A stretch of 64,000 nucleotides of DNA from a virus: positions 48,173-112,172 of IMG/VR virus record IMGVR_UViG_3300044878_000031; one strand, given 5' to 3'. Of the stretch, positions 1-48,263 are shown piece by piece (the stretch's first letter is position 1; the number at the start of each line of letters is the position of its first letter). The position numbers and the translations under genes were made by a program. The notes under the pieces are model-generated. The model searched no databases. It was not told where the DNA came from and saw only the letters and a program-made list of their open reading frames with translations.

Positions 1-26
1 TTAGATCCACTGGATTACGAGTTAGG

Positions 27-121
27 TGATCCTCTCAGCGTTTGTCACGCCAAGTTAAACATGAAGACCGGGAACGGCTATCCGCGAATTCGCAAGCCAA
101 TAGTTCTTCAACGTAAGGATC
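27..121 (-). ncRNA. candidate structured RNA (may extend past window edge)
   Basis: Nested stems GATCCT/AGGATC, TGAAGA/TCTTCA, GAAC/GTTC, GGCT/AGCC and GCGAATTCGC, directly downstream of tRNA-Tyr; no credible ORF. Confidence 0.45.
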
Positions 122-126
122 GTAAA

Positions 127-212
127 TGGTGGGTGAGGTAGGATTCGAACCTACGAAGCCATCGGCGTCAGATTTACAATCTGATAACTTTGAACCACTT
201 GTATACTCACCC
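127..212 (-). tRNA. tRNA-Tyr(GTA)
   Basis: Acceptor GGGTGAG/CTCACCC-A-CCA, anticodon arm TCAGA-TTGTAAA-TCTGA, long variable arm, T arm GTAGG-TTCGAAT-CCTAC. Confidence 0.95.
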
Positions 213-217
213 GGTAA

Positions 218-301
218 AGCTGACAATGTTAGGCATCGAAGCCCTGCTAGTTCCCGGACCGCACTAGCTTTCCATTAACGACGGCTGACGCGTTGTCAGC
301 T
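218..301 (-). ncRNA. candidate structured RNA with T-loop-like hairpin
   Basis: Closing stem AGCTGACAA/TTGTCAGCT, internal GCTAGT/ACTAGC stem and GGGC-TTCGAT-GCCT hairpin. Confidence 0.5.
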
Positions 302-344
302 ATGGCCCTCGCTAATGACTCCCCAGGAGTGCACTGCCACAAAA

Positions 345-483
345 TGGTCCTCCGCTGTCGGATCTACCGACGCGACCGCTTCAACTGACCCCCGGCGTAC
401 GGGACGTTTAGGTTACACTAGAACAACATTCCCACGCAGTAGCGTTCACAATGCGCACTCTAATGGCCTTGGTCTACAGAGGA
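345..483 (-). ncRNA. CCA-ended tRNA-like RNA with large internal domain
   Basis: TCCTCTG/CGGAGGA acceptor-like stem followed by CCA; T-arm-like GTCGG-TAGAT-CCGAC; GACC/GGTC encloses two G-U-containing hairpins. Confidence 0.55.
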
Positions 484-497
484 TGAAACTATGAATT

Positions 498-627
498 TGG
501 CCCCGAGGGGTGGACTCGAACCACCGACCTCCCGCTGGCAAGCGTGTTTAAACGTTCTCGCCACGTTAGTAGCTATCAACGTAACCGCATGTCTAACGAG
601 TGTTCTAACCGACTGAACTACCCAAGG
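498..627 (-). ncRNA. tRNA-like RNA with 60-nt structured anticodon loop
   Basis: D arm GTAGTTCAGTCGGTTAGAA, anticodon stem CTCGT/GCGGG, T arm GGTGG-TTCGAGT-CCACC, G discriminator and CCA; loop 536-595 is 60 nt instead of 7. Confidence 0.75.
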
Positions 628-629
628 GA

Positions 630-875
630 TTGAAAGACTAACCGCTACCCCGACCTACGGAATGCAATACTCACTGTGACCTCTGGAGGAAAAGAAAGAA
701 AACCCCAGAGCAACTCGGTATGCAATCGAGCCATGTAACACATTGAGTCGGGTCACGCTACTCCAACCGCAGAACACCGGAAGTCCGTCAAGTCCCAGTA
801 GATTCCCCTTTCGCCGTGAAGCTAGAGGTCGTGCTGGAATCCCTGCTATCGGTCAGTAACGTGTAGGTCTCTCAA
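630..875 (-). ncRNA. candidate ~245-nt multi-stem RNA
   Basis: Ends pair (TTGAGAG/CTTTCAA and ACTGACCG/CGGTTAGT); internal stems GATTCC/GGAATC, CTCTGG/CCAGAG, CTCGA/CCGAG, CCCGAC/GTCGGG. Confidence 0.55.
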
Positions 876-900
876 TAGATCACTGGAGTATGTAAATTAT
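871..900 (-). promoter_or_regulatory. putative middle-type promoter (ATCTATTGAG motif) for the RNA operon
   Basis: Same 10-mer at 4274-4283 (upstream of phuZ) and 56608-56617 (upstream of uvsX), each with an upstream A/T-rich element. Confidence 0.55.
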
Positions 901-913
901 TACGTAAACTCAG

Positions 914-941
914 GCAAAAAAAAAGGCCCGGTGAAGGGCCC
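914..941 (-). terminator. intrinsic terminator
   Basis: GGGCC/GGCCC-type hairpin followed by T9-GCC on the minus strand, downstream of 957..1370. Confidence 0.65.
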
Positions 942-956
942 CATTGGAAAAGGGTG

Positions 957-1370
957 TTACGGAATCTCTGGGAAGCCCACGATCTTCAGGACTAGGTTAC
1001 GCTTACGGCGATACCAACCAATGGATCTGGTAGGGTAGCCACGTTCCTCACTCTGCTTACGAATGGTCTCGTCATCTTCAAACAGCAGGGGGACTGGGAA
1101 GTATCTCCAGTGTTCTTGACTACCGTGCCTGACTAAGGCGTGGAGTGTACGCTTACTCCAATTGCCGGTGGTAATGCCTTCGATCAATTCTTGTTTGATT
1201 GCTTCGATGCACTCGGCTGCGTTGGAGGCGTTGAATAGATTGTTGTAGTGCGCAACAGTTGTACCTGACTCTTCGTCGTTAGCACGTTTCATGATGTATA
1301 GGACACCACCATTCTCATGCTTGGCAATGTTACCGTTAGCGTAAGTGTGAGTGTGGTATTCGCGGGTCAT
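957..1370 (-). CDS. hypothetical early protein
   Basis: ORF; start moved to MTREY (GAAGG RBS), downstream of a TATATTAC promoter. Confidence 0.75.
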   Translation of the reverse strand: MTREYHTHTYANGNIAKHENGGVLYIMKRANDEESGTTVAHYNNLFNASNAAECIEAIKQELIEGITTGNWSKRTLHALVRHGSQEHWRYFPVPLLFEDDETIRKQSEERGYPTRSIGWYRRKRNLVLKIVGFPEIP

Positions 1371-1426
1371 GGGTAATACCTTCTGAGGCCAATAGATTAG
1401 AGGGAGTTTGTAGCGTGTACACCAAA

Positions 1427-1451
1427 GTAATATATATCTGAAACTTCTTTG
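1427..1451 (-). promoter_or_regulatory. phiKZ-type early (virion RNAP) promoter
   Basis: AAAGAAGTTTCAGATATATATTAC; matches the TATATTAC core and four other copies. Confidence 0.75.
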
Positions 1452-1499
1452 ATTCAACCCCGAATAGAATGAAGGGTTATTTTACTTTGGGGTGTTCTA

Positions 1500-2117
1500 A
1501 TGAACCGTTTGCAGGAACTGGTACAGATCGGGGAACTCGATCTAACCTACAGTCCTGAGGGGCTGGAGATGATGGAGGAGGCTTCTGCTGAAGTCCCTTC
1601 CAAGACGATCTACATATTGCTTACCGATACCAAGACTCTGGTCAGTAAGGTTAGCCGTATGGTTACAGGTGATCCGTACAACCACGTGTCGCTGATGCTG
1701 TCTGATGACTTCGATGATGGTATCTATACCTTCAGTCTGGGGAACGGCGTCAACGGCATTAAGGGTGGCTTCATGGTGGAGGATCGTGCAAACCTGAAAG
1801 GGTCTCACTACTCCATGTACAAGATGGGAGTCACCTCTGACGCGTACGACAAGATCAAGACTCGAATCACTGACTACGTCAAGGGTATCGAGAAAACGTC
1901 ATACAACCATCTGGGGTTGTTTAACGCGATCTTCAAGAAGAACATCTTTAAGACCGAGGATGGCCAAACTTCGATCTGTTCTGAGTTCGTCGTTGAAGTC
2001 CTGAAGTTCTCCGGCGTAGAACTCTTCGCCAAAAGATTCGCCAGCTCTGTAAGACCTTACGAGTTGATCAAATCGAAACTGTTGAAGTTCCACCGTCGTG
2101 GCGTCATAAAACCCTAA
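1500..2117 (+). CDS. permuted papain-like (NlpC/P60, YiiX/YebB-type) enzyme
   Basis: His motif YNHVSL precedes Cys motif ICSEFV; N-terminal GLE is a possible prohead-protease site. Confidence 0.75.
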   Translation: MNRLQELVQIGELDLTYSPEGLEMMEEASAEVPSKTIYILLTDTKTLVSKVSRMVTGDPYNHVSLMLSDDFDDGIYTFSLGNGVNGIKGGFMVEDRANLKGSHYSMYKMGVTSDAYDKIKTRITDYVKGIEKTSYNHLGLFNAIFKKNIFKTEDGQTSICSEFVVEVLKFSGVELFAKRFASSVRPYELIKSKLLKFHRRGVIKP

Positions 2118-47258: not shown

Positions 47259-48263
47259 TTAGATATTGGCGAGGGGATACCACTGCTTCACCAGCGAAGA
47301 CAACTGGGCGGAACGGTACTGCGGTGCAATGAGCATCGGCAACTTGAATTGCTCCAGTTGACCTAACAGGACAGTAGCGTGTGGCGAGGCGTAGGTGAAC
47401 ATCTCGAGGTTGTCGATTTGCTCCCCATTGCGATCGTACTTAGCCCAATTAGGGTTGATGTGATTTAAGACGTCTAGCAGCTCCGTGGTGCGCTCTGCGT
47501 ACTGGGCCGGTGTGGTATTGTCGGCGAACTTGTAAAACATCAGGATGCGCTTGCAGGCGTCTGGCATCGCACCTAATACACCCCCTGACGTCAGACCTTC
47601 TCCCATCAGCTTCAAAGCAGAGATATTGCTGGTCAAAACAGCAACAGGATACTTCTCACGGTAGGCGTAGTACTTAACCGAACTGTGACTGGTGGACTTC
47701 ACCGCTTCATCAATCAGGTCTGTAGCACCAGAACGAATAGCGTAGTCGATGATCGTAGAAGCCATGGCTGCTTCTGCTGCCAAGTCGAACACCGAGAACA
47801 TGTCAGACTTACCCGTCAGTTCGCGAGCCAGCCCTGCTAACCCACGTACGTCATCAAGGTTGCCAGACATATACGCTTTCACGCCAGTCTTGGTTGCCCC
47901 CATGATACTGGACACTGTACCTTTCGAAACCCCGAACTTCTCAAAGGTATCGAACATGGTGTTCTGCATACCGCCAGTCAGTGTCTTGATCAGACCGGTA
48001 CTACCCATGCTCTTACCAACACGCAGGAGTACGTCAGTCTTCGACAGTCGCCCACTGCTGAAGGCTTGAACGTCTTTCATCAACGACTTCATGATCGCAG
48101 GATTCTTACGCAGAGTCGCTGCTGCATCAGTACTGAAGTTCTTCAGGACGTCAGGGATATTGTTGAGGGTGACGTTCTGTTTCTGTTTGTAGTGGTCAAC
48201 CGTGAGGAGTGCATCCACCGGTCCCGACTTAAACAGGGAAGTCGCTACTTTACTTGCGGACAT
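47259..48263 (-). CDS. putative virion structural protein
   Basis: GGGAG RBS before MSASK; N-terminal F.SGP.D.L..VD.Y. Confidence 0.7.
   Translation of the reverse strand: MSASKVATSLFKSGPVDALLTVDHYKQKQNVTLNNIPDVLKNFSTDAAATLRKNPAIMKSLMKDVQAFSSGRLSKTDVLLRVGKSMGSTGLIKTLTGGMQNTMFDTFEKFGVSKGTVSSIMGATKTGVKAYMSGNLDDVRGLAGLARELTGKSDMFSVFDLAAEAAMASTIIDYAIRSGATDLIDEAVKSTSHSSVKYYAYREKYPVAVLTSNISALKLMGEGLTSGGVLGAMPDACKRILMFYKFADNTTPAQYAERTTELLDVLNHINPNWAKYDRNGEQIDNLEMFTYASPHATVLLGQLEQFKLPMLIAPQYRSAQLSSLVKQWYPLANI

Follow-up and report, generated by a model that had tools for sequence, protein, structure and literature searches.

Genomic setting of the locus

The window analysed here is a stretch of 64,000 nucleotides (positions 48,173 to 112,172) of the IMG/VR virus record IMGVR_UViG_3300044878_000031, a 112-kb contig with an estimated completeness of 41%. 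The contig encodes PhuZ, a tubulin, together with a large terminase and virion proteins of the phiKZ-like jumbo phages. On the basis of PhuZ and these phiKZ-like genes, we take the window phage to be a nucleus-forming jumbo phage. Its nearest cultured relatives by PhuZ are the Xanthomonas phages LucasX (46%) and RTH11 (42%).

The gene under study lies at window positions 498–627 on the minus strand. Within the RNA array of the minus strand to which it belongs, it is the second unit; this array begins past a predicted intrinsic terminator (923–942, minus strand) belonging to the upstream gene (957–1457, minus strand). The array is tiled with other structured RNAs and continues into ten further tRNA genes upstream of the window. 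Its promoter probably lies just past the terminator, within 880–922 (minus strand); a sigma-70 scan of this segment gave no promoter match. The same segment contains a T run followed by an A/T-rich motif, both conserved in the related phage locus L012.

Other units of the array also have unusual features. An RNA block at 218–301 (minus strand), lying between the tRNA-Tyr gene and the neighbour of the 498–627 gene, is almost base-for-base identical in the phage loci L001, L002, L003, L012 and L014, although the adjacent protein is only 53–65% identical among those phages; the block is far more conserved than the surrounding tRNAs and matches no Rfam family. A second tRNA-derived unit, at 345–483 (minus strand), has a deleted D arm and a shortened T loop with its insert retained, and its counterparts in two relatives (L001:13911-14068 and L016:7209-7365) have a full tRNA body with an insert of 81–86 bases in the anticodon arm. 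This combination of an eroded body and a kept insert is the opposite of the pattern at 498–627. Two further units of the array lie outside the window on the source contig: a 'tRNA-Ala(AGC)' whose predicted acceptor stem is 8 bp long and whose anticodon stem is poor (C1:45607-45686, minus strand), and a 69-base 'tRNA-Val(CAC)' with a 4-bp T stem (C1:46503-46571, minus strand).

Anatomy of the 498–627 gene

The gene encodes a tRNA-shaped RNA of 130 nt in which a folded rod replaces the anticodon loop, as delineated by the Rfam tRNA model and by a family model, R1. The Rfam model (RF00005) matches window positions 501–627 (minus strand) with 35.9 bits, against a gathering score of 29, covers model positions 1–71, and places 60 bases where an anticodon loop of 7 bases is expected. 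The first-pass annotation, made from the sequence alone, had described a tRNA body with a folded 60-nt insert in place of the anticodon loop, and this description holds, with the gene placed on the minus strand. The parts that it listed are likewise present on direct reading of the sequence. The D arm (602–618), with a 4-bp stem and a 9-nt loop, is recognized by Rfam and ARAGORN and is paired throughout the family. The anticodon stem is formed by CUCGU (596–600) and GCGGG (531–535), both placed by Rfam and by the consensus structure, with pair counts also defining the 3' strand. It is followed by a variable loop, AGGUC (526–530), which is invariant in the family, and by a T arm (509–525) with a 5-bp stem and a 7-nt T loop, defined by pair counts. 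The RNA ends in a discriminator base G73 (501) and an encoded CCA (500–498). The acceptor stem, whose 5' strand (621–627) pairs with 502–508 according to sequence reading and pair changes within the family, is as weak as had been reported, having two wobble pairs (U3-G70 and G5-U68) and one mismatch (U4/C69).

Beyond the anticodon stem, the sequence folds into a rod of about 65 bases that extends this stem through four helices. Helix 4 (586–591 with 539–544) is supported by the minimum free energy structure and by consensus pairs with covariation, and helices 5 to 7 by covariation. Helix 5 (P0) pairs GUU (583–585) with AAC (546–548), and helix 6 (P1) pairs 578–582 with 552–556. A conserved 3-nt bulge, UUN (UUA here, 549–551), lies on the 3' strand between P0 and P1. 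Beyond P1, an internal loop with invariant bases has NNUA on its 5' side (GAUA here, 574–577) facing GAN (GAG here, 557–559), and the rod is capped by helix 7 (P2), a hairpin with a variable loop (560–573). The alignments identify a vestigial anticodon loop, UAGACAU (589–595), that is partly paired within the rod.

Standard gene finding does not recover this RNA. With default settings, ARAGORN missed the gene and called only the neighbouring tRNA-Tyr (127–212); with its intron option, it reported a 'tRNA-Ala(UGC)' with a 53-nt intron. The alanine assignment was rejected, as it places a pyrimidine at position 37, relies on a loop that is unconserved in L003, where one additional base is present, and comes with a stem that has no G3:U70 pair. 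UAGACAU is the only 7-mer in the loop position, with A33 in place of U33. Compared with a decoding tRNA, the window copy has a cloverleaf body above the Rfam gathering score, and it lacks the combination of a 7-nt loop, U33, a purine at position 37 and a 5-bp stem. It does have every helix and every invariant base that define the family, namely the tRNA body together with the four-helix rod, the UUN bulge and the NNUA/GAN loop. R1 scores it at 129.5 bits (E 8e-35), the window sequence being part of the R1 training set; a near-identical independent copy in L015 scores 129.2 bits. Open reading frames that cross the gene do not exceed 41 codons, and neither ARAGORN nor Rfam finds a tmRNA in the window.

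Two slots and one rod per genome

Relatives were located through three anchors: the near-invariant neighbouring RNA block, PhuZ, and the protein gene just upstream. This yielded nine further phage contigs with a matching array layout, all from uncultured PhuZ-encoding jumbo phages of soil and compost. In four of them the gene occupies the same slot as in the window, 5' of tRNA-Tyr (class 'a'): L015:1074-1203, L003:7736-7866, L014:3923-4056 and L021:6802-6934. In the other five (L001, L012, L016, L017 and L018) a paralog lies beside tRNA-Ser(UGA), and slot 'a' is empty or changed (class 'b'). The two classes align across the insert as well as the body, and G73-CCA is retained in all class 'a' copies. 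The insert is conserved between phages whose neighbouring protein is only 53–57% identical.

R1 finds exactly one full-length member, at 118–130 bits, in each of the seven phage records that were searched whole, one of which is 100% complete; the other loci likewise contain one full-length member. The next best matches, at 65–69 bits, are the ordinary tRNA-Asp genes of these phages; among ordinary tRNAs, theirs is also the D arm nearest to that of the 498–627 gene. Where a slot does not hold a full rod, the unit is either missing or consists of an intact tRNA body whose arm is shorter, closed and non-decoding. In the window phage itself, the slot beside tRNA-Ser(UGA), which holds the full rod in five relatives, contains a perfect tRNA body in which the anticodon arm is a stem of 8 bp with a UUCG tetraloop at its tip (C1:45817-45898, minus strand, equivalent to L022:9818-9899, outside the window). 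Tracts L001:13793-13894 and L021:11059-11157 encode tRNA bodies with rods of 41 and 38 bases, respectively. A short hydrophobic reading frame beginning ATGATGCG (L012:3240-3390, minus strand; also in L002 and L001) occupies the position of the class 'a' gene of the window phage, and L001 carries both this reading frame and the short-rod tRNA shape.

The neighbouring-protein tree places L003, L014 and L021, all of class 'a', in one clade and the five class 'b' phages in another, with the window phage, also of class 'a', as sister to the 'b' clade. This placement fits two old paralogs of which only one has kept the rod module, which is the simplest reading of the distribution. Body and rod also differ in their affinities. 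The bodies of L016 and L017 are identical at 69 of 70 positions and their rods at 36 of 62, while the rod of L021 matches that of L014 (94%) and its body that of L003 (93%). This mosaic suggests that bodies and rods have been exchanged as cassettes through recombination.

Pattern and blastn searches brought no additional members. An exact pattern from the D arm of the window copy had no matches in IMG/VR; a gapped insert pattern recovered the true L003 copy and seven chance matches in coding DNA; and the matches to a degenerate pattern spanning the D arm and anticodon stem were all ordinary tRNAs of 77 nt from other phages. Against GenBank phages, blastn of the gene aligned only with pieces of the T arm of unrelated tRNAs. 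The family was not encountered in literature searches, and reviews of jumbo phages cover tRNAs and non-coding RNAs of phages with nothing comparable among them.

Conservation of the rod structure

RNAalifold applied to the nine distinct sequences of the family produced a consensus of 38 pairs, comprising the cloverleaf and the four-helix extension, with compensatory changes in 22 of the 38; since the nine sequences come from one phage clade, their kinship inflates some of the covariation measures. On the model-fitted alignment, 95.6% of cells are paired, compared to 36–48% when partners are slid by one to three columns, and none of 500 shuffles matched the observed covariation. In the body, both sides have changed in five of the six modelled acceptor pairs (helix 1) and in four of the five pairs of the T arm (helix 8). 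The T arm and the D arm (helix 2) are both paired in 100% of cells and the anticodon stem (helix 3) in 95.6%. Every rod helix also contains pairs in which both sides have changed: P0 appears as GUU/AAC, GCU/AGC and ACU/AGU; P1 (578–582/552–556; 97.8% paired) has such changes in four of its five pairs, both between and within classes; and the P2 hairpin (560–573) has them in three of six, with a loop that varies in length and sequence.

The unpaired positions of the rod are conserved as well. The UU of the UUN bulge and the UA and GA of the 4×3 internal loop are invariant in all nine sequences. We presume that the NNUA/GAN loop is akin to the UAA/GAN or loop-E type motifs, and that the U-rich bulge resembles those that bind peptides. 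The invariant unpaired bases and the constant four-helix layout in both classes indicate that selection acts on the rod itself and, as judged from the pattern of substitutions, body and rod are both under purifying selection.

These pairings revise one detail of the first-pass annotation. The hairpin GTTACGTT/AACGTGGC that it proposed can be drawn in the window copy but is not conserved, as relatives are without the first AACGU; the covarying partner of ACGUU (582–578) is the second AACGU (556–552), and 573–569/564–560 forms a separate hairpin. Its '60-nt loop' is correct in that 60 bases separate the two strands of the anticodon stem, but the covariation-supported pairing means that this 'loop' is really the anticodon stem extended into a rod.

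A single-sequence fold of the whole RNA is no better than that of shuffled sequences (z −0.24), so the support for the structure is comparative rather than thermodynamic; the arm alone has a z of −2.28. In all four class 'a' copies compared, the rod fold is favoured over a forced anticodon stem-loop by 5.2–8.8 kcal/mol, with the GAC triplet buried. In the window copy, the closing pairs of the UAGACAU loop compete with the rod fold, which is more stable by 5.5 kcal/mol.

Several known elements were also considered. The extra sequence was not accepted as a giant variable arm, given that the rod fold is favoured and family-wide. Comparison by eye with a K-turn, a hammerhead core, a twister-like core, a bulge-helix-bulge motif, the terminal inverted repeats of a small transposon, and CRISPR repeats or tags produced no fit, the partial matches falling in helices that lose them by covariation in relatives.

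The covariation also bears on whether the gene is simply a tRNA pseudogene, decaying after a chance insertion, which was one of the options raised in the first-pass annotation. The weak acceptor stem of the window copy, its omission by default ARAGORN and the unexceptional whole-RNA folding energy speak for such a remnant. Decay does not account for compensatory changes in every helix of body and insert, for an insert that persists between phages with diverged neighbouring proteins, or for one copy per genome. The pseudogene is therefore rejected as far as sequence comparison allows, and we regard it as extremely improbable. The annotation had further reasoned that relatives with an ordinary tRNA at this position and an unconserved insert would point to decay. 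No relative has an uninterrupted, insert-free gene in slot 'a', and the insert is conserved.

The intron alternative

A different explanation for the extra sequence is that the gene encodes a tRNA-Val(GAC) interrupted by an intron of 53–56 bases, located inside the 3' strand of the anticodon stem and removed by host enzymes or by self-processing. The case for it comes mainly from L003 and L014, in which CUCGU is followed by CUGACAU and then GCGG, with a second (G/U)CGGG preceding AGGUC. A deletion between these repeats would rebuild a canonical anticodon arm, which is the best argument for an intron. The ARAGORN intron mode reads L003, L014 and L013 as tRNA-Val(GAC) with introns of 53–56 nt, and the cloverleaf is intact with an encoded CCA. 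Furthermore, tRNAs with conserved inserts in the Lak phages have been reported as introns, with no mechanism given (PMC6784885).

Known machinery and signals for such removal were not found in the sequences searched. The first-pass annotation had judged the insert too short for a group I intron, and at 53–60 nt it is; no group I intron (Intron_gpI), other intron or ribozyme family of Rfam matches window positions 1–1500 at E-values up to 10. A bulge-helix-bulge motif is absent from the putative junctions in both the minimum free energy and the consensus structures. The consensus has a sole 3-nt bulge, followed by a 5-bp helix and the 4×3 internal loop, and cutting there would rebuild no tRNA. 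Neither the tRNA splicing endonuclease EndA (PF01974) nor RtcB nor an Rnl2-type ligase was detected in five related phage genomes, one of them 100% complete; a search of the phage genomes for Rnl1 was blank, as was its control.

The sequences themselves also argue against excision. Class 'b' copies carry the rod and have no canonical loop in any register found, and the 'b' clade, which has no slot 'a' gene, has no Val(GAC) gene in those parts of the array that were scanned. In the window and L021 copies, UA replaces CU at positions 32–33 (UAGACAU), so that the near-universal U33 is lost and one rod pair is gained. No insert-free allele was found in any relative, the rod fold is energetically preferred to the near stem-loop, and the occurrence of one rod per genome, in either slot, is a better fit to a needed module. 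The earlier proposal of a small intron of a new type thus stands in so far as a clean deletion restores the tRNA-Val(GAC) arm in L003 and L014, and is opposed by the second class, by the loss of U33 and by the splicing enzymes not found in the five genomes. Overall, an interrupted tRNA-Val(GAC) gene is quite unlikely. Slightly more doubtful still is its most specific form, in which the rod would be a new type of small tRNA intron in viruses of bacteria, excised between the GCGG and CGGG repeats, with the rod structure as the recognition element and tRNA-Val(GAC) made only after its removal. If the rod were excised, a new splicing route in bacteria would follow.

Proposed role as a non-decoding RNA on a tRNA carrier

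We consider it probable that the gene belongs to a family of non-decoding tRNA-shaped RNAs, present as a single copy in the window phage, in which the rod is a payload on a tRNA carrier. The conserved rod replaces the codon-reading loop; hence, the 498–627 RNA almost certainly does not decode. Among the options of the first-pass annotation, it is the non-decoding tRNA mimic that the comparison favours, with body and insert both maintained by compensatory change, GAC buried in the rod, and A33 in the window copy.

The RNA would be transcribed together with the phage tRNA array. Its tRNA body would allow 5' processing by RNase P and trimming of the 3' end to the encoded CCA, and may confer tRNA-like stability. 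The anticodon arm, lengthened into the rod, would swallow the former anticodon (GAC) and preclude codon reading, and the rod would offer a putative docking site for a partner of phage or host origin, most likely a protein. Retention of the rod RNA in every genome examined would imply an important RNA-protein or RNA-RNA interaction.

Two features count against a carrier of this kind. The textbook loop of L003 and L014 (C32, U33, GAC, A37 and U38, then GCGG) would not be expected in a pure scaffold, except as a vestige, and we read the CUGACAU-type loop as a relic of the tRNA from which the family may have descended. In addition, the G73-CCA end and sound cloverleaf of class 'a' copies are as in a working tRNA.

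Alternatively, the tRNA body might be the working part, either as a decoy or sponge for some host factor that holds tRNAs by the acceptor or elbow (for example, a defence nuclease, a toxin or a modification enzyme) or as a 'punctuation mark' for RNase P, with the rod serving to keep the RNA off the ribosome. Intact, closed, non-decoding bodies with differing arms in the second slot (the UUCG-capped stem of this phage, and the short rods of L021 and L001) agree with such a role. The body/rod mosaic would fit fast turnover of one part, and the array is full of other folded RNAs. A working body leaves unexplained, however, why unpaired rod bases are invariant, why the rod layout is constant in both classes, and why exactly one full rod is kept per genome. 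Moreover, known anticodon nucleases read the anticodon loop, which this RNA is without. We consider a working body unlikely, although it is the more credible of the departures from the rod-payload reading discussed here.

Clusters of phage tRNAs are usually read as supplies for codon usage or anti-defence. With the rod as payload, a single-copy tRNA shape in such a cluster would have given up decoding for a structured module. Default tRNA finders miss genes of this kind, and the GenBank record of Xanthomonas phage RTH11 has zero RNA features annotated across its tRNA region.

Comparison with known systems

The nearest published observation is that of the 'tRNA introns' of the Lak megaphages, compared here through the text of the paper: conserved inserts, one of them tRNA-like, that were taken to be introns, with no mechanism put forward (Devoto et al. 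2019, PMC6784885). In both cases, conserved extra sequence lies in the anticodon region of genes in phage tRNA clusters, is seen only with intron-tolerant finders, and has no known means of removal. The Lak phages differ in having Prevotella hosts and an alternative genetic code. For the rod-bearing RNAs, covariation, a second class that has no loop and the occurrence of one copy in each genome favour a retained module over an intron. They may offer another way of reading the oversized tRNA genes that have been reported as intron-bearing in other giant phages.

The bacterial Y RNA YrlA (RF02553) is also non-decoding and also combines a tRNA-like body (acceptor, D and T arms) with a long helical stem. 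Its topology is the reverse: YrlA ends in the long stem and has a closed acceptor, whereas the 498–627 RNA ends in the acceptor with CCA and has a closed rod. RF02553 does not match window positions 1–1500 at E-values up to 10. No gene for Ro/TROVE was found in five genomes, the single hit (G001) being antisense to real open reading frames and containing three stops. A Ro/Y RNA system was discarded, given the missing YrlA match and the spurious TROVE hit.

YrlA-like matches do occur in cultured relatives, at 44.2 bits in RTH11 (L037:2380-2459) and 32.3 bits in Salmonella phage SA002 (L030:739-856), both below the gathering score of 69. The RTH11 match is the inner part of a tRNA shape at L037:2350-2499 (OQ790161.1 75849-75998), whose anticodon arm contains a permuted tRNA-like body (T arm, closed acceptor and D arm). 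In SA002 (MN445183.1), a PhuZ-encoding jumbo phage, the match is full-length, and the same locus also has a tRNA-like gene of 182 bases (L030:1501-1682) in which T and D arms are nested.

The rnaC and rnaD RNAs of phage T4 (species 1 and 2) are likewise small stable RNAs at the end of a phage tRNA cluster, and rnaC includes both a T arm and a stem that resembles an acceptor. They are not homologous to the 498–627 RNA and have another shape. The Rfam tRNA model matches neither, and R1 scores the 3' part of rnaC at only 12 bits and has no match in rnaD.

Group I introns, such as that of cyanobacterial tRNA-Leu(UAA), need about 200 nt or more and a P1–P9 core, and archaeal tRNA introns need a bulge-helix-bulge motif and EndA. 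Both resemble the present case in that a tRNA gene, normal in other respects, has additional sequence within its anticodon arm. The insert here differs from the former in its length and in having no Rfam match, and from the latter in that neither the motif nor the enzyme was found.

The design has its closest parallel in the engineered 'tRNA scaffold' attributed to Ponchon and Dardel (2007), in which a foreign RNA reportedly replaces the anticodon loop and the tRNA body is said to give processing and nuclease resistance in bacteria. That scaffold is a laboratory construct. The 498–627 family would be its natural counterpart, a maintained version with a conserved payload and, on present comparative evidence, the gene extends the known range of tRNA-like RNAs by a form whose structure is well supported.
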